This document shows, one piece after another, positions 3,266 through 39,312 of a stretch of DNA of 44,053 nt (position 1 is the stretch's first letter; each line of letters opens with the position of its first letter). The notes under the pieces are model-generated. The model did no database searches. It had not been told where the DNA came from and worked only from the letters and a program-made list of their open reading frames with translations. The DNA comes from a virus (lineage: Duplodnaviria; Heunggongvirae; Uroviricota; Caudoviricetes). A program made the translations under genes and the position numbers. The stretch spans positions 1 through 44,053 of the IMG/VR virus record IMGVR_UViG_2597489870_000002; one strand, 5' to 3'.

Positions 3266-4207
3266 TTACATAGATGTTTCGTTTAATTCTTCCCGACGAA
3301 CGCTGTAAACGTCGGTGGCTTTTGCCAGCAGTTCGTCATCATCTGAAAGTTTTTGTGCAATGTATTTGTAAGCCTTATCCAGTTCGGAGACAGTGCTGTA
3401 ATTCATCGCTGCGCTGGTAAAGGCCATCAGCATTTCTTCTGGATCACGGCTATCCGATTTACGCGTTTGCTCATCAGGCTTTTTCGCTGGTTTAGCGTTG
3501 ATCAGACTGTTCATTCCCGCAGCAGTGGTCGTTTGCGGAGTAATGTCTCGCTCAACGCGCGGTGCCGTTTCCTGTAATTCGTCTGGGGTGTAGACGCCCA
3601 TGATTACGTCAGGACAGTGCAGGCGAGACCAGCGTTTTGTCGCAAGGTATGCGAGTTGTTGTTTCGGATCACTGGCCCAAAGTGTGGAGTTTCTTACCTG
3701 TGCTTGAGACAGCATTAACTCAAGCACTCGAGGTTGATCCTCGCCCTTCATGGTTGCCCATACGCGAACACCGCAGCCTTCTTCGTCTTTTAGAGTCCAG
3801 CCTGGTGCGATATATGGATTGCCGTTTTTGGATGTTTTCTCAACAAACTTACCGATCACGCGTTCCCACGGCCCAAACCACTCGTAGTTGATGCGATCTT
3901 TTGTTGGCGACATCGTTGAGATAACTGCGTTTACTAATTGGGCTTCATAACCTAGCGTGCCGTTCACAACATGGGTTTTCTGAGCCACGGCAAACGGGTT
4001 CATTCCCCACTGCGCAGCCTGCATTGCCACGGCCATGCAATCAGCTGATTTCCCGGCGAGGTGCGCCGGTACCGTTACGCGGCTTTGCGCCATTACCTCG
4101 GCGAATTTCATCAGTTGGTTCAAGCCGTCTGGGCTGAAAATAGTTGCAGCAGTTCCAGCGATTGCTGTGTCTACTGGTGCGTTGATGTTTGCGATGTCGT
4201 TGCTCAT
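3266..4207 (-). CDS. recT: RecT-family single-strand annealing recombinase
   Basis: RecT-like core (AVAMQAAQWGMNPFAVAQKTHVVNGTLGYEAQLVNAVI). The ATG at 4207 (MSNDIAN) overlaps the stop of the upstream exonuclease gene (ATGA). Confidence 0.8.
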   Translation of the reverse strand: MSNDIANINAPVDTAIAGTAATIFSPDGLNQLMKFAEVMAQSRVTVPAHLAGKSADCMAVAMQAAQWGMNPFAVAQKTHVVNGTLGYEAQLVNAVISTMSPTKDRINYEWFGPWERVIGKFVEKTSKNGNPYIAPGWTLKDEEGCGVRVWATMKGEDQPRVLELMLSQAQVRNSTLWASDPKQQLAYLATKRWSRLHCPDVIMGVYTPDELQETAPRVERDITPQTTTAAGMNSLINAKPAKKPDEQTRKSDSRDPEEMLMAFTSAAMNYSTVSELDKAYKYIAQKLSDDDELLAKATDVYSVRREELNETSM

Positions 4208-5025
4208 ATGTACATATCCTGTTTGCGTGCCCACTCAGGGCGTTTAATGATTTCCACACCGCCCCATTCATCATTGATGCGGCATTCGTGATAGGTATTC
4301 AGATCCCGGCGGAACAGAGCGTGCCCGGCATCGACATCCTGCGCATCCAGCTCGAACACGCGTACCGGATACCGACCACAATCAATGCTTTCGCTCACGG
4401 CAAGAAAGAAAAAACCATGCGGCTGACCAGTAACCCTCATTGCGCCTTCGCGGTACATTGCGTCCTGCACGTGGTAGCGGAATTCCTCGATGTGGCGTGC
4501 AAAACGGTCCATATCTGCAACCTTTTTCACGTCGACGATCACGTTGTGCTCGTTCAGCCATTTGTCTGGACGAATTCGGCACAACTCACCCGTCTCTTCA
4601 TCGTTCCAGTACATTGATGCTTCGCAGTAACCAGGTGCTTCCAACATCCAGCGTGCCGCCGGGTGAGCCATTGCGCTATCACGCATCAGCTCCAGTTTCC
4701 GCCACTGCTCGGCATCAAGTACCGTAATCCCCATATCCGCCACATCACGAAGAAATGCCTCTTCGTCAGCTTTACCTTGTTTCGTCCGACGATCGAATTT
4801 CGGTGAAACAATGAAGCGTTTGTCGAACTCTCTAGGCTCCAGAAGCAGACAGTGCAATGCGGTTCCCATATCCAGTGCAGACTTTTTCTCTTCGTCTTCT
4901 GGTGCTGCCTGAACCCATTTAAGAAGCGCCGGATTCTTGGCAACCATGTCCAGTTGCGACTTACTCACGCCGTCACCGGCGTGGTAGTCCTCATTGCTGA
5001 TGTCGAAATAGATGCCAGTATTCAT
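4204..5025 (-). CDS. RecE-like PD-(D/E)XK exonuclease (exonuclease VIII C-terminal domain type)
   Basis: 273 aa. The N-terminus MNTGIYFDISNEDYHAGDGVSKSQL.. is typical of RecE-like / DUF3799 nucleases. Translationally coupled to recT. Confidence 0.7.
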   Translation of the reverse strand: MNTGIYFDISNEDYHAGDGVSKSQLDMVAKNPALLKWVQAAPEDEEKKSALDMGTALHCLLLEPREFDKRFIVSPKFDRRTKQGKADEEAFLRDVADMGITVLDAEQWRKLELMRDSAMAHPAARWMLEAPGYCEASMYWNDEETGELCRIRPDKWLNEHNVIVDVKKVADMDRFARHIEEFRYHVQDAMYREGAMRVTGQPHGFFFLAVSESIDCGRYPVRVFELDAQDVDAGHALFRRDLNTYHECRINDEWGGVEIIKRPEWARKQDMYI

Positions 5026-5697: not shown

Positions 5698-5776
5698 GTT
5701 ACCGTTGAGGTAATGATTATGCGTATTTGGTTTGGTGTCAATAGATATGAGTTAAAAAAATTACCCTTAAGGTAAT
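5698..5776. promoter_or_regulatory. Two ATTACC-N5-GGTAAT operators flanking a putative leftward early promoter
   Basis: GTTACCGTTGAGGTAAT (5698-5714) and a perfect ATTACCCTTAAGGTAAT (5760-5776). Between them, GGTGTCAATAG (5734-5744) has a complement containing TTGACA. An ATTTGGTT box lies at 5725-5732. Confidence 0.6.
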
Positions 5777-5832: not shown

Positions 5833-6417
5833 TTATTGTTTGTTTTTTTCGTTCTGGTTGATGACAAATTCAATGTAACTTTCGATCTTTGCTTTCTCGG
5901 TTTCGGGTAACAATGCGTAGCGCGAGCGGTCATAGTTGATGGTCGCAGGGTCGTGCGGGTGAATCAGTAATTCATAGCCGTGACGCCCGAATGCGGATGC
6001 AACATTCTCCAGGGTGGAAATGGAAACGCTGACCTCATTGTTTAACAGGCGGCTGATTGTCACCTGGGCGACGCCGGATGCGCGGTGAAGTTTTCCCTGT
6101 GTTGAAAGGTCGCGGCTTTCGCTCATCCAGCGTTCCAGGTTGTGAGCCGCCAGCTGACCTATATCGCTCGGGCCGACAGGCTGAAAACCTTCCTGAGAAA
6201 GCGAGCGATCGATATCAAGCCAGTTACGGGGTTTATTGGCGGCAGCTTCAATTTTTCGCGCAACCTGGTCGCCGATAACCTTCTTGCCAAGAGCCCAGCG
6301 GTTTACCAGATTTGCCTGAGTTCCAAGTTTTTCTGCCATCCGCGTCTGAACACCATTGAATTCACGGTCGATCAAGTCGTTGAGATTTTGCCTGCGGACG
6401 TCCTGGATACTTTTCAT
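5833..6417 (-). CDS. Prophage repressor candidate with two XRE-type HTH domains and no obvious S24 peptidase domain
   Basis: 194 aa. HTH1 is QTRMAEKLGTQANLVNRWALGKK and HTH2 is LHRASGVAQVTISRLLNNEVSVSISTLENVASAF. Divergent from the cro-like gene across an operator-rich spacer. Confidence 0.7.
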   Translation of the reverse strand: MKSIQDVRRQNLNDLIDREFNGVQTRMAEKLGTQANLVNRWALGKKVIGDQVARKIEAAANKPRNWLDIDRSLSQEGFQPVGPSDIGQLAAHNLERWMSESRDLSTQGKLHRASGVAQVTISRLLNNEVSVSISTLENVASAFGRHGYELLIHPHDPATINYDRSRYALLPETEKAKIESYIEFVINQNEKNKQ

Positions 6418-12573: not shown

Positions 12574-12608
12574 ATTACCAAAACGGTAATTATTACTTTG
12601 GTGGTAAC
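12574..12608 (+). promoter_or_regulatory. Tandem palindromes immediately upstream of terS
   Basis: Perfect ATTACCAAAACGGTAAT (12574-12590) and ATTACTTTGGTGGTAAC (12592-12608). The ATG is at 12610. Confidence 0.6.
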
Positions 12609-12609
12609 A

Positions 12610-13206
12610 ATGCCCGCAGAACCAAAGGCACCAAAACGCAAATCAACGCAGTACAAGCCACTGACAGCGATGCAGGAGGCTTACGCGCAGGAATATACCA
12701 AATGCCCAGAGAATCAGACGCAGGCAGCGATTAACGCAGGATTCTCACCTAATACGGCAGCGGTCAAAGCCAGCGTCATGATGCGTGATGAGCGCATTCA
12801 GAAACGAATAGCTGAACTGATGGAAGAGCGCAACAAGCGACTGCGCGTCAGTGCTGATTACGTGCTACTCCGTCTGGTGGAAATTGACCAGATGGATGTG
12901 ATGGATATCCTGAACGACGATATGAGCATCAAGCCGGTTTCAGAATGGCCCAAGGTCTGGCGGCAGTACCTGACAGGGTTCGAGCTTGCCGACATGTTCG
13001 AAGGTCGTGGCGACGAGAAAGAATTGGTTGGCATCCTCAAAAAAATAAAATGGCCGGACAAGGTGAAGAACCTTGAGCTTATCGGTAAGCACGTCGACGT
13101 CAACGCGTTCAAAGAGCGCCTTGAGGTATCCGGTACCGTCACCATTGCCGACCGCATGGCGAAGGCCCGCCGTCGTGTGAAAGAGCAGGCTGGTGGTGAA
13201 GAATGA
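12610..13206 (+). CDS. terS: Terminase small subunit
   Basis: Internal ATG at 12610 (MPAEPKAP..). LTAMQEAYAQEYTKCPENQTQAAINAGFSPNTAAVKASVMMRDERIQKRI fits the Terminase_2 small-subunit pattern. ATGA coupling to terL. Confidence 0.8.
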   Translation: MPAEPKAPKRKSTQYKPLTAMQEAYAQEYTKCPENQTQAAINAGFSPNTAAVKASVMMRDERIQKRIAELMEERNKRLRVSADYVLLRLVEIDQMDVMDILNDDMSIKPVSEWPKVWRQYLTGFELADMFEGRGDEKELVGILKKIKWPDKVKNLELIGKHVDVNAFKERLEVSGTVTIADRMAKARRRVKEQAGGEE

Positions 13207-14684
13207 CAGCTGCAGCCATGTCGCCGGAAGAGCAACTCGTCGAGGATATCGCAGGGTTCACGTATGACCCGCTGGGCTATGCGTTGTATGCGTTCCCGTG
13301 GGGAGAAGAGGGCACTGAGCTGGCACATGCCACCGGTCCCCGAAAATGGCAGGCCGACGCATTCCGCGAGATACGCGATCACCTCCAGAATCCGGCAACA
13401 CGTCACCAGCCGATAATGCTGGCTCGCGCATCCGGTCATGGCATCGGTAAATCTGCGTTCATCTCGATGCTGATTAACTGGGGCATGTCGACCTGTGAAG
13501 ACTGCAAGGTAGTGGTGACAGCCAACACCGACAACCAGTTACGCACCAAAACATGGCCGGAAATCATCAAATGGTCGAACCTGGCTATCACAAAAGAATG
13601 GTTTACCTGCACCGCCACGGCGATGTACAGCAACGATCCGGGTCACGACAAACGCTGGCGCGCTGACGCAATCCCATGGTCTGAGCATAACACCGAGGCA
13701 TTTGCCGGACTGCACAACGAGCGAAAGCGCATCATCGTCGTATTCGACGAAGCGTCCAACATTGCCGATCTGGTGTGGGAAGTAGCAGAGGGTGCTCTGA
13801 CGGACGAGGACACCGAGATTATCTGGGTGGCGTTCGGAAACCCGACGCGTAACACCGGGCGTTTCCGCGAATGCTTCCGCAAGTACAAGCACCGCTGGAA
13901 GTGCGCGCAGATTGACAGCCGCACCGTGGAAGGAACCAACAAGGAGCAACTGCAAAAATGGGTGGACGACTACGGCGAGGATAGCGACTTCGTGAAAGTC
14001 CGTGTACGCGGGATCTTCCCTGATGCGTCTGAAAACCAGTTCATCCCATCCGGACTGACGCAACCAGCTGTTGGCAGGGTTATTACTCCGGCACAGGTCC
14101 AGCATGCTGCTGTAGTTCTTGGAGTCGACCCGTCTCACCAGGGTAAAGACCCCGCAGTTATCTACCTGAGGCAGGGGCTGCACTGCAAAAAACTCGGGGA
14201 GTGGCAGCGTACCACTGACGATGTGCTGTTTGCGAAAGTGATTGCCGACTTCGAGGATCAGTACCAGGCTGACGCTGTGTTTATCGATTACGGCTATGGC
14301 ACAGGTCTTAAATCTGTTGGCGATAACTGGGGGCGCAACTGGACGCTGATAATGTTCGGCAGCGGTACGGCAGATCCCGAGATGGGCAACAAACGCGGCG
14401 AGATGTATAAATCCGCCCGTGACGCGCTGAAGCTTGGTGCGCAACTGGATAGCCAGGAACTTGCCGACGAACTGAGCGCACCTGAATACAAAGTCAGGCT
14501 GAAGGACAGCAGGAAGATTTTACAGGACAAGGACGAGGTGAAAGAATTGCTTGGCCGGTCACCGAACAATGCCGACGCCTATGTGCTGACTTATGCCGCT
14601 CCTGTTACCAAAAAACAGTTCAACTATGGGCAGCAGCAAAGCCAGCAGGGTAAGGCTCTCACAGAGTACGATCCCTATGCTTGA
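13203..14684 (+). CDS. terL: Terminase large subunit
   Basis: 493 aa. Walker-A-like ASGHGIGKSAF, VVFDEAS (Walker B-like), and its position after terS. Confidence 0.85.
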   Translation: MTAAAMSPEEQLVEDIAGFTYDPLGYALYAFPWGEEGTELAHATGPRKWQADAFREIRDHLQNPATRHQPIMLARASGHGIGKSAFISMLINWGMSTCEDCKVVVTANTDNQLRTKTWPEIIKWSNLAITKEWFTCTATAMYSNDPGHDKRWRADAIPWSEHNTEAFAGLHNERKRIIVVFDEASNIADLVWEVAEGALTDEDTEIIWVAFGNPTRNTGRFRECFRKYKHRWKCAQIDSRTVEGTNKEQLQKWVDDYGEDSDFVKVRVRGIFPDASENQFIPSGLTQPAVGRVITPAQVQHAAVVLGVDPSHQGKDPAVIYLRQGLHCKKLGEWQRTTDDVLFAKVIADFEDQYQADAVFIDYGYGTGLKSVGDNWGRNWTLIMFGSGTADPEMGNKRGEMYKSARDALKLGAQLDSQELADELSAPEYKVRLKDSRKILQDKDEVKELLGRSPNNADAYVLTYAAPVTKKQFNYGQQQSQQGKALTEYDPYA

Positions 14685-14707
14685 AAAAGCCCGCGAATCG
14701 GCGGGCT
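14684..14707 (-). terminator. Terminator for the reverse-oriented 201-aa gene
   Basis: Stem AGCCCGC / GCGGGCT (14688-14707) with an A-run on the plus strand, which reads as a T-run on the minus strand. Confidence 0.7.
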
Positions 14708-14727
14708 AGTTGTGACATGTCACGGCT

Positions 14728-15333
14728 TTAGTCCTGTAAATATTCTTCGGTGCTCACAGCCAGCCGGCCTTCTAACAGTTCAGCGTGAGTGCTATCAATG
14801 ATAACCGAATGATGCGGGTGAACATTTTGAGCCAGCCATTTAATTACTGGTCTTGTCACTTCTTCGAATGAGTCAGCTAAGGCTTTGTTTGTGTCTGTGA
14901 TATTGCAATCACCAAGATTAATGGCATCAAATCCAGCGTTGATGGCTTCCGCAATATTGGTGGCATTGGTTTTATCGAATTGCCCATTCTGAATAAGCGC
15001 CGCATGCAGACATTGTAACTTCATGTTGTATAAGTGTTCTCGCATGTAATCATCATCACTTTTTTCTTTAGCGTAAACAGCGCGAGAAATATCAAATACA
15101 TTACCTTTTTCCATTTCCGTCCGCTGGGCTGCAATCCAGTCATGACTTGTAACGCTAGTCCCATGGTCTTCACTAAGCGGTAACCCGGCCAGTCGTTCAC
15201 CAGGAATTACCTCGTAATGCATTTCGTTACCGGCAAAAACACCATAAAAAATAGAGTCATCAGCTTGAACGATGCGGGAATATTTTAAAGGCCATTCATT
15301 TAGATATTTAGCCAACATATCAACTGTTTTCAT
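14728..15333 (-). CDS. Hypothetical 201-aa moron protein
   Basis: AT-rich ORF in the opposite orientation between terL and the portal gene. SD AAGGTGAG lies upstream. I recognise no motif in it. Confidence 0.7.
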   Translation of the reverse strand: MKTVDMLAKYLNEWPLKYSRIVQADDSIFYGVFAGNEMHYEVIPGERLAGLPLSEDHGTSVTSHDWIAAQRTEMEKGNVFDISRAVYAKEKSDDDYMREHLYNMKLQCLHAALIQNGQFDKTNATNIAEAINAGFDAINLGDCNITDTNKALADSFEEVTRPVIKWLAQNVHPHHSVIIDSTHAELLEGRLAVSTEEYLQD

Positions 15334-15344
15334 AATCTCACCTT

Positions 15345-15368
15345 AAAAAAATGCCCACCGGAGTGGGC
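15345..15368 (-). terminator. Rho-independent terminator downstream of the tRNA transcript
   Basis: On the minus strand: GCCCAC-TCCG-GTGGGC followed by ATTTTTTT. Confidence 0.75.
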
Positions 15369-15541
15369 GAACTGGAAGCAAGGATGCCTTCCATGGCAGT
15401 TACGGGTTTACAGCGCAACGTCATCGCAATGGCGTTCTGCTGTAAAAGTGACGGTGGTCAGCATCAAGGGAAACTGCCACCGCCAATAGCTACACAGCAT
15501 CGTTCTTATGGGCGCTTCATCACGGTCCTAAGGCGTGATTC

Positions 15542-15618
15542 TGGTGCGGCATGCAGGATTCGAACCTGCGGCCAACCGCTTAGAAGGCGGTTGCTCTATC
15601 CAACTGAGCTAATGCCAC
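15542..15618 (-). tRNA. tRNA-Arg (anticodon UCU), argU-like, with CCA encoded
   Basis: Hand-folded cloverleaf: GTGGCAT-TA-GCTC-AGTTGGATA-GAGC-A-ACCGC-CTTCTAA-GCGGT-TGGCC-GCAGG-TTCGAAT-CCTGC-ATGCCGC-A-CCA. Confidence 0.9.
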
Positions 15619-15881
15619 AACGCTGAGAGCACTCCCATCTTTGCTAATGGGCTTCAAGAGCGGCAGGCCTACCACTTGGAATGCTCTCATCGTTGCATCC
15701 TCGTCTATTCCGAGGTGTCACACCGTATCGCCACGATGGTGAGTCGTCATGTCCGTGCTTACCTGACACTGGCTTGCACATTCCGGCTACCCGGCTGGGG
15801 AAGTAGCATCAAGTGAACCCATCCGGACCGCTGCGGCACATGTGCCATATACCGTACATCCACTGCGTCACATCAACATCA

Positions 15882-15960
15882 ATTACCTAAAAGGTAATAT
15901 CTGATGTTATAGGTGTCAATAGCCTACGCTAAATAAATCATATGTGGTTAAATTGGTAAT
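15882..15960. promoter_or_regulatory. Palindrome and promoter-like elements between the tRNA unit and the head operon
   Basis: Perfect ATTACCTAAAAGGTAAT (15882-15898). GGTGTCAATAG (15912-15922) has a complement containing TTGACA. ATGTGGTT (15942-15949), N5, then GGTAAT (15955-15960). Confidence 0.55.
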
Positions 15961-15987
15961 AATTTAATTGCGTACGGAGCTATTGCT

Positions 15988-33540: not shown

Positions 33541-34233
33541 TCAGAAGAACCCTGCCTTGTCGTTGATGTACTCCGCGTGCGTCTGGATATCACGCAGGCA
33601 TTTGCTCACACCGACGATGTAGCAGAACATGGTGGTCAGTTCCGCCGCCGCGCCCGATACATCATGCCCGTCGTCCTGCAACTGGTTTAGCAGATTCATC
33701 AGCAGTGAGTTCTCCGTCAGGCCGAGAACACCAGACGGCGAGTGAATCAGGCTACGGTAGCCTGGCTTCAGTGGGGCACTGTAGGTTTTGTTCTCTATCT
33801 TCATTGCCTGCATCACTGCTGATGCTGTGGCGTTGGCTACCTGGTCGGCAACCATCTTTATGCGCTCTTCCTGCGGGAGCGAGTTTTTAATGTAGCTTCC
33901 GGTGCGGCGGATCTGAGGAAGAACCTCACCTGTAACCCATTCAAGAAATCTGAATGCTCTCGTTCCCTCAGTCATTGCCTCTTTGCAACGCAGAATAAGG
34001 ATGTAGAGACCTGATTCTGAAACGATGGATAGTTCTTGTATTCCACCAGGGGTCTGTATTGAATACAGCCCCTTTTTGTTCCAGCCTTTTTTATCAAGTT
34101 TTCTCGCTTGTGTAACATCAATATTCAAAGCATTGCACACATCTTTGGTGACAAACCAAGGTTCTCCGTCAATCATGAACATACGGATCTGGCAGGATGA
34201 CTCAAAGGAAAAGATGGAAGGTTTGGTATTCAT
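33541..34233 (-). CDS. Bro-N/KilA-N-type antirepressor
   Basis: ATG at 34233 (MNTKPSIFSFESSCQIRMFMIDGEPWFVTKDVCNALNI = BRO-N pattern). The C-terminal roughly 75 aa are paralogous to ORF 35379..35636. Confidence 0.75.
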   Translation of the reverse strand: MNTKPSIFSFESSCQIRMFMIDGEPWFVTKDVCNALNIDVTQARKLDKKGWNKKGLYSIQTPGGIQELSIVSESGLYILILRCKEAMTEGTRAFRFLEWVTGEVLPQIRRTGSYIKNSLPQEERIKMVADQVANATASAVMQAMKIENKTYSAPLKPGYRSLIHSPSGVLGLTENSLLMNLLNQLQDDGHDVSGAAAELTTMFCYIVGVSKCLRDIQTHAEYINDKAGFF

Positions 34234-34499
34234 GGCGATCACCTTTGTAGTTAGGTTAATCACCACCGCTGAGACCAATCAGATGGTGGTGAACTGTGCA
34301 GAGTTGGTCTTACCGGCTACAAAGGAACCCGGCGCACCTTTCGGTGCCCCCACACAGCCCACCATAGAATAGGTGCGCTTTACACATAAAAAAACCGCTT
34401 ATGCGGCGTATGTGCCTCTGTAGTAATCCGGGAGACCAATCCCGGCACTGGATTTTGCCAGTGCCTGATTACTATGGCACAAGAGGAGTGCGATGTAAA

Positions 34500-34609
34500 T
34501 TTACCGCAAAGGTAATGATAAGCGAGGAGAAATATCAAAATCAACCGTATTTGGTTGATGGAGTTTAACGCTTGATCACCTGAAAGCAAGATATTACCTT
34601 TAAGGTAAT
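34500..34609. promoter_or_regulatory. Two palindromes and an ATTTGGTT box in the ant / 242-aa divergent region
   Basis: TTTACCGCAAAGGTAAT (34500-34516). TCAACCGTATTTGGTTGA (34541-34558), an inverted repeat containing ATTTGGTT (34549-34556). Perfect ATTACCTTTAAGGTAAT (34593-34609). Confidence 0.55.
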
Positions 34610-36696: not shown

Positions 36697-37374
36697 ATGT
36701 CCATCATTTTTAATGGACACTATCGTATGAAACACCGGACCTGGATCACTGAAGCTTTACGTCTTCACTTTGAAGAACATTTACCCCGGGTTGTGGCCGG
36801 GCGTCGCCTGGGTGTACCAAAATCAACAGTTTGTAGTATGTTCGTGCGCTTTCGGAGAGCTGGCCTTTCGTGGCCTTTGCCCGCAGGCATGTCGGAGCAG
36901 GAACTTGATGCCTGCCTTTACGGACAATTTTCCACGGTACCAGTCGTACGTCCTGAAAGCACCGTTATATCCGAAGCCCCCGTGGTAAAAAAACGTCCCC
37001 GGCGGCCCAACTTCCCTTATGAGTTTAAAATCGCCTTAGTGGAGCAGTCACTGCAGCCCGGAGCCTGTGTGGCGCAGATCGCCCGGGAAAACGGAATCAA
37101 CGATAACCTGCTCTTCAACTGGCGCCATCAATACCGGAAAGGTGGCCTGCTGCCTTCCGGAAAAAATATGCCGGCACTGCTTCCCGTGACGTTAACGCCG
37201 GAGCCGGATAATAAAATCCCGGCCCCCGCACAGGAACCAGAGCAGATAAATACACCGTCCGACAGTCTGTGTTGTGAGCTGGTTCTGCCGGCCGGAACTC
37301 TCAGGCTTAAAGGTAAACTGACGCCGGCGTTATTACAGACACTTATCCGCGAAATAAAAGGGAGCAGCCACTGA
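36697..37374 (+). CDS. tnpA: IS66-family accessory protein TnpA (orfA)
   Basis: RRPNFPYEFKIALVEQSLQPGACVAQIARENGINDNLLFNWRHQYRKG. The start is uncertain (an alternative ATG lies at 36727). Confidence 0.75.
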   Translation: MSIIFNGHYRMKHRTWITEALRLHFEEHLPRVVAGRRLGVPKSTVCSMFVRFRRAGLSWPLPAGMSEQELDACLYGQFSTVPVVRPESTVISEAPVVKKRPRRPNFPYEFKIALVEQSLQPGACVAQIARENGINDNLLFNWRHQYRKGGLLPSGKNMPALLPVTLTPEPDNKIPAPAQEPEQINTPSDSLCCELVLPAGTLRLKGKLTPALLQTLIREIKGSSH

Positions 37375-37721
37375 TGATATCTCTCCCTGCAGGTTCGCGT
37401 ATCTGGCTGGTTGCAGGTATCACCGATATGCGAAATGGCTTTAACGGCCTGGCATCAAAAGTTCAGAACGTCCTGAAGGATGACCCGTTCTCCGGACACC
37501 TGTTCATCTTCCGCGGACGCCGGGGTGACCAGATAAAAGTGTTGTGGGCTGACAGTGACGGACTGTGCCTCTTCACCAAACGCCTGGAGCGGGGCCGCTT
37601 CGTCTGGCCAGTCACCCGTGACGGCAAGGTGCACCTTACTCCGGCTCAGTTATCCATGCTTCTTGAAGGTATCAACTGGAAGCACCCGAAACGAACGGAA
37701 CGCGCTGGAATCCGCATATAA
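37374..37721 (+). CDS. tnpB: IS66-family TnpB (orfB)
   Basis: 115 aa. ..RIWLVAGITDMRNGFNGLASKVQ..DPFSGHLFIFRGRRGDQIKVLWAD is the classic IS66 orf2. ATGA-type coupling to orfA. Confidence 0.9.
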   Translation: MISLPAGSRIWLVAGITDMRNGFNGLASKVQNVLKDDPFSGHLFIFRGRRGDQIKVLWADSDGLCLFTKRLERGRFVWPVTRDGKVHLTPAQLSMLLEGINWKHPKRTERAGIRI

Positions 37722-37740
37722 CCCGTTGTAAAGTGAGGAT

Positions 37741-39312
37741 ATGGACACCTCACTTGCTCATGAGAACGCCCGCCTGCGGGCACTGTTGCAGACGCAACAG
37801 GACACCATCCGCCAGATGGCTGAATACAACCGCCTGCTCTCACAGCGGGTGGCGGCTTATGCTTCCGAAATCAACCGGCTGAAGGCGCTGGTTGCGAAAC
37901 TGCAACGTATGCAGTTCGGTAAAAGCTCAGAAAAACTTCGTGCAAAAACCGAACGGCAGATACAGGAAGCACAGGAGCGAATCAGCGCACTTCAGGAAGA
38001 AATGGCGGAAACGCTGGGTGAGCAATATGACCCGGTACTGCCATCCGCCCTGCGCCAGTCTTCAGCCCGTAAACCGTTACCGGCCTCACTTCCCCGTGAA
38101 ACCCGGGTTATCCGGCCGGAAGAGGAATGCTGTCCTGCCTGTGGTGGTGAACTCAGTTCTCTGGGATGTGATGTGTCAGAGCAACTGGAGCTTATCAGCA
38201 GCGCCTTTAAGGTTATCGAAACACAACGTCCGAAACAGGCCTGTTGCCGGTGCGACCATATCGTGCAGGCACCAGTACCTTCAAAACCCATTGCACGCAG
38301 TTATGCCGGAGCGGGGCTTCTGGCCCATGTTGTCACCGGGAAATATGCAGACCATCTGCCGTTATACCGCCAGTCAGAAATATACCGTCGTCAGGGAGTG
38401 GAGCTGAGCCGTGCCACACTGGGGCGCTGGACAGGTGCTGTTGCTGAACTGCTGGAGCCGCTGTATGACGTCCTGCGCCAGTATGTGCTGATGCCCGGTA
38501 AAGTCCATGCTGATGATATCCCCGTCCCGGTCCAGGAGCCGGGCAGCGGTAAAACCCGGACAGCCCGGCTGTGGGTCTACGTCCGTGATGACCGTAACGC
38601 CGGTTCACAGATGCCCCCGGCGGTCTGGTTCGCGTACAGTCCGGACCGGAAAGGTATCCATCCACAAAATCACCTGGCCGGTTACAGCGGTGTGCTTCAG
38701 GCCGATGCTTACGGTGGTTACCGGGCGTTATACGAATCCGGCAGAATAACGGAAGCCGCGTGTATGGCTCATGCCCGGAGAAAAATCCACGATGTGCATG
38801 CAAGAGCGCCCACCTACATCACCACGGAAGCCCTGCAGCGTATCGGTGAACTGTATGCCATCGAGGCAGAGGTCCGGGGCTGTTCAGCAGAACAGCGTCT
38901 GGCGGCAAGAAAAGCCAGAGCCGCGCCACTGATGCAGTCACTGTATGACTGGATACAGCAACAGATGAAAACACTGTCGCGTCACTCAGATACGGCAAAA
39001 GCGTTCGCATACCTGCTGAAACAGTGGGATGCACTGAACGTGTACTGCAGTAATGGCTGGGTGGAAATCGACAACAACATCGCAGAGAACGCCTTACGGG
39101 GAGTGGCCGTAGGCCGGAAAAACTGGATGTTCGCGGGTTCCGACAGCGGTGGTGAACATGCGGCGGTGTTGTACTCGCTGATCGGCACATGCCGTCTGAA
39201 CAATGTGGAGCCAGAAAAGTGGCTGCGTTACGTCATTGAACATATCCAGGACTGGCCGGCAAACCGGGTACGCGATCTGTTGCCCTGGAAAGTTGATCTG
39301 AGCTCTCAGTAA
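37741..39312 (+). CDS. tnpC: IS66-family transposase TnpC (orfC)
   Basis: 523 aa with an N-terminal leucine-zipper-like coil, a CPACGG zinc motif and a DDE-type core (..LQADAYGGY..). Confidence 0.9.

Follow-up and report, generated by a model that had tools for sequence, protein, structure and literature searches.

The putL element of phage HK022 is placed just downstream of an early promoter and needs no dedicated phage protein (PMC9378689). A put site measures ~70 nt, consists of two stems in a V shape and comes in two copies, which follow PL and PR, respectively; its defining trait is terminator read-through that depends on the zinc-binding domain of the RNA polymerase β′ subunit. In lambda, a long structured untranslated leader (nutL/N-leader) separates the leftward early promoter from the first gene. 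P1 and P7 have dispersed repressor operators, one of which, Op(ban), drives an early operon with tRNAs. The tRNA cluster of T4 is co-transcribed with the stable structured RNAs C and D. Here we analysed a 44,053-nt stretch of viral DNA (Caudoviricetes; IMG/VR record IMGVR_UViG_2597489870_000002, positions 1 to 44,053), referred to below as the window. In the leader of a minus-strand cassette between its terL and portal genes we delineated a structured RNA of ~160 nt (15697-15856), here called the core, from an alignment (A2), the covariation within it and a covariance model (R1). Comparative sequence analysis indicates that the core is a real, conserved and mobile structured RNA and makes it a strong candidate for a new and very widespread phage RNA family. 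The original prediction for this cassette, made by a model from the letters of the window, had suspected that its RNA outside the tRNA was functional. That RNA indeed proved structured and conserved, with covariation in the core, the P6 domain and the terminator; what the prediction missed is that the core of the leader is, judged from its distribution, a widespread RNA module in its own right.

Read on the minus strand, the core opens with the H1 hairpin (15834-15854), which contains the palindrome GGCACATGTGCC at 15835-15846. P2 (15790-15827) has a conserved base and a variable apical hairpin, and is followed by the invariant segment GGUAGCCGGAAUGUGCAAG, whose last 17 nt correspond to 15773-15789, and by the variable P3. 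The P4 hairpin (15733-15747) exposes a 7-nt loop, YUCACCA, from which CACC (15738-15741) pairs with GGUG (15721-15724) to form a pseudoknot; the P5 hairpin (15699-15715) completes the fold. Across the 32 non-redundant copies aligned in A2, the five helices (H1, the base of P2, P4, the pseudoknot and P5) were paired in 98% of 832 cells. Changes on both sides were found in 11 of the 26 pairs, a result that none of 500 shuffles equalled, and pairing fell to 28-55% when the 3′ partners were slid as a control. The G·U pairs frequent in the core helices identify the minus strand as the functional one; the tRNA lies on the same strand. About 60 core positions are invariant, many of them unpaired, but the sequences were gathered from public genomes and viral contigs through an exact 17-mer or 23-mer anchor and are mutually related, so that their diversity is limited and some of these positions are invariant by construction. 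R1 scored 148 bits at the core, its sole copy in the window. A six-phage alignment of the leader resolved into conserved blocks with variable inserts between them, and in BLAST searches ~180 nt of the leader recurred in many loci otherwise unrelated to the window. The whole 567-nt cassette RNA folded better than 100 of 100 dinucleotide shuffles (z = −3.65). RNAalifold also proposed a long-range pairing of GCACAU in H1 with AUGUGC. This alternative was rejected because L221 and L273, two independent metagenome variants, have a U-to-C change at this pairing that is not compensated, whereas covariation is seen in the local H1 hairpin.

The core corresponds to no RNA family that we could find. Searching 15620-15885 against Rfam 15 (E≤10) gave no match to the core or leader, nor was there one in the leader of locus L174; over the region and the whole window, Rfam recognized only the tRNA in the cassette, and C4 and isrK elsewhere. 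The leader had been predicted to lack a convincing open reading frame (ORF), and this holds: none exceeds 46 aa, and the reading frame is not kept in relatives. A 45-aa candidate at 15644-15781 was rejected, its frame being shifted by indels in relatives such as phiV10. No earlier description of the core emerged from the literature covered, which dealt with Uetakevirus, mEp phages, put-like elements, anti-sRNAs and Pas sRNAs but did not extend to the genome paper of epsilon15.

The core is present in 1778 of 5426 complete Escherichia coli genomes, in up to four places per genome, with 257 places on plasmids. It also occurs in Salmonella, Klebsiella, Citrobacter, Enterobacter, Kosakonia and P1-like plasmids. 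Among the 25 E. coli matches listed, none had a feature annotated under the core, and across the records inspected it was either unannotated or overlain only by hypothetical-protein calls. Such coding sequences (CDSs) cover the core or leader in Ayreon (L298, 3484-3603), mEp390 (L175, 2574-2816), Tyrion (L006, 1915-2076) and phiV10 (phiV10p04, L004), and are probably spurious. One viral contig (L069) carries tandem core copies at 3998-4154 and 4805-4959, ~650 nt apart, the second being more divergent (117.6 bits). A second core match also lies outside the window on the chromosome of strain H10407 (NC_017633.1/NZ_CP007594.1).

Three genomic settings were apparent, and clustering by neighbouring genes yielded the same three. 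In Uetakeviruses the core occupies the gap between terL and gp3/portal. In SfV-like and lambdoid phages (mEp390, mEp460, cdtI, Ayreon and the Stx2a/Stx2c phages) it lies just past cI, the cI terminator and the leftward early promoter. In the P1-like P7, D6, SJ46 and RCS47 it is found between tRNA-Ile and ban, within the C1-controlled Op(ban) operon. The window resembles this last system in its dispersed repressor operators, one of which probably controls an early unit with a tRNA, and in a P1-type C4 antisense RNA with an antirepressor; the two differ in operator sequence, virion type and the position of the core in the operon, and no RNA element is annotated there in P7. The core begins ~28 nt past the predicted transcription start in the window; in mEp390, Stx2a_1447 and Ayreon the distance from the leftward early promoter, or from the start inferred for it, is ~40-50 nt. 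This is the location that characterizes put. Wherever found, it is sense-oriented within an operon leader and travels without a promoter or terminator of its own.

One tRNA-Arg(UCU) with an encoded CCA end follows the leader at 15542-15618 on the minus strand, as predicted; it scored 71 bits against Rfam RF00005 (gathering score 29), and ARAGORN placed its anticodon tct at position 35. Like the argU-like tRNA-Arg(UCU) genes of other temperate enterobacterial phages, it gives a rare AGA-decoding tRNA to a phage with elevated use of AGA and AGG; in contrast to those, it is one optional module, absent from epsilon15, Tyrion and most core loci. Among 143 core loci, 29 have a tRNA-Arg(UCU) downstream, 18 have a tRNA upstream (the tRNA-Ile of P1-like phages) and 96 have none nearby. 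This distribution bears on the possibility that leader and trailer are mere flanks of a tRNA precursor, or decayed tRNA genes, without a function of their own. Speaking for it are the T-arm-like hairpins (CTGGTTCAATTCCAG, GTCCGTTCGATTCGGAC) in the P6 inserts of SPN9TCW (L003), L174 (2610-2705), L146 and L008. They may be what is left of tRNAs, or else T-loop modules; ARAGORN called no tRNA in the SPN9TCW insert, and the other three were not scanned for tRNAs. Within the window itself, ARAGORN and Rfam detected no additional or degenerate tRNA, contrary to one suggestion of the original prediction. With two-thirds of the core loci lacking a tRNA and compensatory changes maintaining helices that are not those of a tRNA, the distribution and covariation of the RNA already contradict this explanation, which we regard as very improbable.

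Between core and tRNA lies the P6 domain (15619-15695, minus strand), a long-range helix of CAACGAUGAGAGCAUUCC and GGGAGUGCUCUCAGCGUUG around a variable insert, ending at position −1 of the tRNA. The helix runs from CAACG to CGUUG and includes the predicted long-range stem GAGAGCATTCC (15678-15688)/GGGAGTGCTCTC (15625-15636). Other loci keep the pairing through compensatory variants (GAUGAGAGC/GCUCUCAGC, AGGUAAGAGC/GCUCUUUCC and AAAGCGC/GCGCUCU). The insert at 15634-15662 (minus strand) carries a boxA-like CGCUCUUGA followed by a small hairpin, CCCAU...AUGGG; this combination is shared only with Tyrion and could be a nut-like site or a coincidence. Downstream of the tRNA, a 3′ trailer (15369-15541) forms four hairpins: T1 (15519-15539), T2 (15442-15484), T3 (15407-15446) and T4 (15373-15393), all on the minus strand. 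T2 is terminator-like because its GC-rich stem is followed by a U-run. The trailer is strongly conserved in sequence, with 94.8% of cells paired. Clear covariation is limited to the intrinsic terminator T5 that follows it, with single cases in T1 and T2. T5 (15345-15368, up to 15372, minus strand) consists of the hairpin GCCCACTCCGGTGGGC (GCCCACUCCGGUGGGC as RNA), with seven pairs, and a T7 (U7) run; two of its pairs covary in relatives (AC/GU versus GG/CC). T1-like, T2-like and other modules recur in lambdoid leaders, from which it appears that the whole cassette RNA is a mosaic of shared modules. In epsilon15 most of the core is gone together with the tRNA (L001 2641-2723 compared with 15442-15830 of the window). 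The deletion junction, CCCTTG|ATGCTGACC, lies in an 11-nt repeat that the P2 and T2 loops share and points to a repeat-mediated deletion. A UYCCUUG motif recurs in the P2 and T2 loops of many loci.

Transcription of the cassette is predicted to start from a minus-strand promoter, TTGACA-17 nt-TACCTT, whose layout is kept in the six aligned phages. Its −35 element (15914-15919) lies within the 11-mer CTATTGACACC. On the other strand this 11-mer (GGTGTCAATAG) has exactly two copies in the window, at 15912 and 5734, with ~0.02 extra copies expected by chance, and the second (5734-5744) sits at the early-left promoter. The operator ATTACCT-N3-AGGTAAT (ATTACCTAAAAGGTAAT, 15882-15898), with perfect 7-bp arms around 3 nt, overlaps both the weak −10 element TACCTT (15891-15896) and the predicted transcription start near 15884, in keeping with the regulated promoter that had been proposed. 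The motif ATTACC-N5-GGTAAT has five perfect copies in the window, and 11 when one mismatch is allowed, compared with 0 and 0.07 occurrences in mononucleotide shuffles of the same DNA. Sites at 5698 and 5760 flank the early-left promoter beside the repressor gene; others are found near the cro side, at 12574 upstream of terS, and at 34500 and 34593 upstream of a unit of isrK, C4 and an antirepressor. The epsilon15 site homologous to 15882-15898 is annotated in GenBank as a repressor binding site. The cassette thus probably belongs to the prophage-repressor regulon, silent in the lysogen and fired early on infection or induction.

The perfect operator at 12574-12590 falls inside the PGAP-called start of terS (12529/12535), and epsilon15 has an operator 20 nt upstream of terS. 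The true start of terS is probably near 12613, which would place the packaging/structural operon under direct repressor control.

The repressor site also bears on the interpretation first given to the cassette, namely a moron expressed in the lysogen whose leader and trailer RNAs regulate a host-modulating or defence gene of 201 aa. The cassette does have the promoter and terminators of a moron (promoter and operator at 15882-15919, terminators at 15345 and 14683) and a foreign-looking AT-rich ORF, and expression in lysogens is common for morons and prophage tRNAs. Against this, repression in the lysogen is predicted, because the operator, a copy of the early-left motif, covers the −10 element and the start site. 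Moreover, the same RNA is found with any cargo, without cargo and in unrelated phage contexts, including the early lytic operons of other phages, and is thus independent of the identity and presence of the gene that it was proposed to regulate as a riboregulator or attenuator. PADLOC returned only a weak and meaningless Cas3 match (17 bits), and the cargo that could be identified in relatives is anti-defence (Tad2-like), not defence. We consider the moron interpretation unlikely.

The cargo slot (14728-15344, minus strand) comprises a Shine–Dalgarno (SD) sequence, AAGGUGA (15331-15344), and the 201-aa ORF (ORF201, 14728-15333). This SD/ATG, like the palindrome, 11-mer, stem, tRNA and terminator listed in the original prediction, was found as it had been described. 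ORF201 has a GC content of 42%, compared with 50.5% for the window, and is a fusion of small modules: its N-terminal 139 aa belong to a common 140-aa module (phrog_4846), which is joined to a C-terminal module of ~50 aa. Intact members of the family occur in related prophages by the hundred: of 535 E. coli records with a match to the region, ~520 cover the N-terminal 140 aa together with the RNA, so the conservation anticipated for this gene was confirmed. No Pfam family was matched by ORF201, which has no Tad2 domain; PHROGs gave only families of unknown function, sequence and profile searches of the PDB gave no match, and NCBIfam and PADLOC gave sub-threshold noise. The structure prediction that had been suggested was run with AlphaFold2, yielding a model too poor to use (pLDDT 53.8, pTM 0.28).

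At 32 loci a cargo ORF lies directly past T5 behind a conserved AAGGTGA. There is no room for a promoter in between, so that expression of the cargo requires read-through of T5. These ORFs come from unrelated families: the 140-aa family, PF13876, an HNH endonuclease, several others and, at two loci, Tad2-like proteins (PF11195; L005, 4.2e-26; L147, 1.9e-24). The slot has the appearance of an early locus for accessory genes of counter-defence. In eight Uetakevirus loci (L053, L072, L077, L127, L142, L157, L165 and L172) another operator past T5 overlaps a consensus or near-consensus −10 element, for example ATTACCTTAAAGGTATAAT, so that the accessory genes of these loci are served by a separate promoter under repressor control.

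We favour, with reservation, a reading of the region as an early accessory transcription unit of an epsilon15-like prophage with a cis-acting core, although we hold it to be somewhat less than evenly probable. Its σ70 promoter, lying inside the repressor operator, would keep the unit silent in the lysogen and fire it immediately on infection or induction. As the sequence shows, the transcript carries, in order, the core, P6 with its insert, tRNA-Arg(UCU), the four trailer hairpins, T5 and then the SD/ATG of an exchangeable cargo. RNase P and 3′ trimming would free the tRNA-Arg, which may supplement AGA decoding, as AGA and AGG are used 5.1 and 3.9 times per 1000 codons in the prophage; in E. 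coli K-12 the values are ~2 and ~1. The core itself would be a functional analogue of nutL and putL that keeps the long untranslated leader from terminating and lets some polymerases continue past T2 and T5 to the cargo gene. The product of that gene, in the window the 201-aa protein, would be an early accessory factor, plausibly in counter-defence. We infer both the early timing and the antitermination step from the arrangement of the sequence.

For the central step, action of the core in cis on elongating RNA polymerase, we see roughly one chance in three. The step is favoured by the position of the core, which sits where nutL and putL sit in lambdoid genomes (PMC9378689). It is further favoured because the leaders are long and untranslated, because neither of the first two downstream ORFs of L174 and of L175 had an N-family Pfam match, and because diverse cargo genes depend on read-through of T5. 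In addition, sense terminator-like hairpins are ~15-fold enriched just downstream of the core (1.53 per kb in the following 600 nt, compared with 0.10 per kb further on). With put the core shares the character of a structured cis RNA just past a repressor-controlled early promoter, with intrinsic terminators downstream. With the lambda N-leader the cassette shares the long structured untranslated leader; relatives such as L174 have long stems that are potential RNase III substrates, and epsilon15 carries an 'RNaseIII' annotation, which recall the lambda RNase III site. Unlike lambda nut, the core has no conserved boxA or boxB: the only boxA-like sequence, the 9-mer CGCTCTTGA, is confined to the variable P6 insert of H10407 and Tyrion.

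Several observations weigh against this reading. The core is roughly double put in length and differs from it in architecture, having five helices and a pseudoknot. Nor are the two similar: R1 found nothing (E≤1) in 24-31 kb of the HK022 genome, an interval that we take to include both PL and PR, although cI and nun are not annotated in the record. There is one core copy per phage, where put has two, and R1 detected none near the rightward early promoter in L174 and L175, the cro side included. The core lies mid-operon in P1-like phages, and some loci place it at least ~130 nt away from the promoter. Eleven Uetakevirus loci have a second operator and a TATAAT promoter after T5, suggesting that T5 can be a genuine end of the unit. 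The terminator predictor gives false positives, as on the long stem of L174, and terminators past the core fit a stand-alone non-coding RNA gene equally well. Finally, the choice of sequences by anchor and their relatedness limit the diversity sampled.

The main rival takes up several of these points. Here the core and P6 would be a stable non-coding RNA acting in trans, released by tRNA processing (RNase P at the 5′ end of the tRNA in this cassette, 3′ processing of tRNA-Ile in P1-like phages) or by RNase III/E, and aimed at a conserved host protein or RNA, for which it would be a decoy or sponge in host takeover or counter-defence. The long invariant unpaired segments suggest a conserved binding partner, and the tRNAs, which adjoin the core on either side in 47 of the 143 loci, would punctuate such an RNA. 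Terminators follow the core, the 11 loci with a new promoter past T5 end the unit there, and the locus is shared with Tad2-like anti-defence cargo under early repressor-controlled expression. The T4 RNAs C and D are comparable, being structured RNAs co-transcribed with phage tRNAs that would likewise be freed by tRNA processing; we know of no sequence relation between them and the core, nor of T4 RNAs in the operon leaders of unrelated phages. What speaks against action in trans is that the core module comes without its own promoter or terminator and always in sense within operon leaders, that in L112 and the P1-like phages it is placed like a 5′ untranslated region, 25-95 nt upstream of an ORF, and that no target or partner can be named. 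We judge it a doubtful but serious alternative.

Less probable still is that the core is a catalytic or processing element, either a new class of self-cleaving ribozyme or an RNase-resistant 5′ domain that would define or protect RNA ends in early transcripts. The multi-helix pseudoknotted fold with its many invariant unpaired positions is typical of ribozymes and aptamers, and several classes of self-cleaving ribozyme are phage-borne and often lie beside tRNAs, as the core does. No known ribozyme family in Rfam was matched, however, and no cleavage site can be inferred; we rate this reading as improbable.

The cis-acting antiterminator that we prefer also falls under a broader proposal, that the core is a new class of autonomous functional RNA which temperate enterobacterial phages place in the leaders of their early operons, whether an antiterminator unrelated to put, a ribozyme, an aptamer or a decoy. 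The examined CPS-53 region of E. coli K-12 lacks the core and keeps yfdP and yfdQ, the genes that follow it in SfV-like phages. In this region (L300, 9247-9605) the leader is replaced by repetitive sequence with GATTTTGACGGGTCA repeats. That the core is such a new class and that K-12 lost it by deletion in CPS-53 are together a tentative proposition, which we rate at about one-third; its absence from K-12 may be why the core has not been studied so far.

The core is far more widespread than put, with copies in about a third of complete E. coli genomes. If it acts on RNA polymerase, it would be, to our knowledge, only the second phage RNA to antiterminate without a dedicated phage protein. If instead it acts in trans or as a ribozyme, it would add a new and abundant class of RNA to a species that has been studied more than any other bacterium. 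Either way, the core marks the starts of early operons and a slot for accessory (counter-defence) genes. As a marker it should aid prophage annotation and the search for new anti-defence genes, and it corrects the spurious hypothetical-protein calls in Ayreon, mEp390, Tyrion and phiV10.

The window is an epsilon15/phiV10-like (Uetakevirus) prophage of the enterotoxigenic E. coli (ETEC) strain H10407; the region is 100% identical to the chromosome of that strain (NC_017633.1). Its nearest phages are SPN1S, SPN9TCW and SPC32H (~97%), followed by phiV10, TL-2011b, Tyrion and epsilon15. Similarity to epsilon15, phiV10 and SPN1S is accompanied by the gene order terS-terL-[reverse cassette]-gp3-portal of the genus. 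The PGAP annotation of the whole window describes a complete epsilon15-like prophage, with an integrase (1-1257), a helix-turn-helix (HTH) repressor (5833-6417, minus strand) and an early-left operon running from 5679 to 1260; terS and terL precede the cassette, and gp3, the portal and the capsid genes follow it. The original prediction had read the separation of terL from the portal gene as a departure from the normal order. The reverse-oriented cassette is indeed there, but such DNA is the usual state in epsilon15, phiV10, SPN1S, SPN9TCW, Tyrion and other Uetakeviruses, so that the cassette is a conserved module of the genus and, as a gene arrangement, already known. In the equivalent intergenic region the GenBank record of epsilon15 marks a terminator, an "RNaseIII" site, an IHF site and a repressor site. 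The far end of the cassette is a terminator hairpin, AGCCCGCCGAUUCGCGGGCUUUUUC (14683-14707, minus strand), common to the convergent terL and cargo ORF; phiV10 annotates a terminator at the equivalent place.

An IS66-family element, ISCro1 (tnpA, tnpB and transposase), is inserted at ~36697-39312 next to a truncated ORF, and for this reason the prophage may be defective. On the minus strand, Rfam gave gathering-level matches to C4 antisense RNA (34282-34369) and isrK (34388-34464). A BRO-N antirepressor gene (33541-34233) closely follows this pair, and the operators at 34500 and 34593 precede the pair, an arrangement that resembles the immI-type antirepressor control of P1 inside a podovirus prophage.

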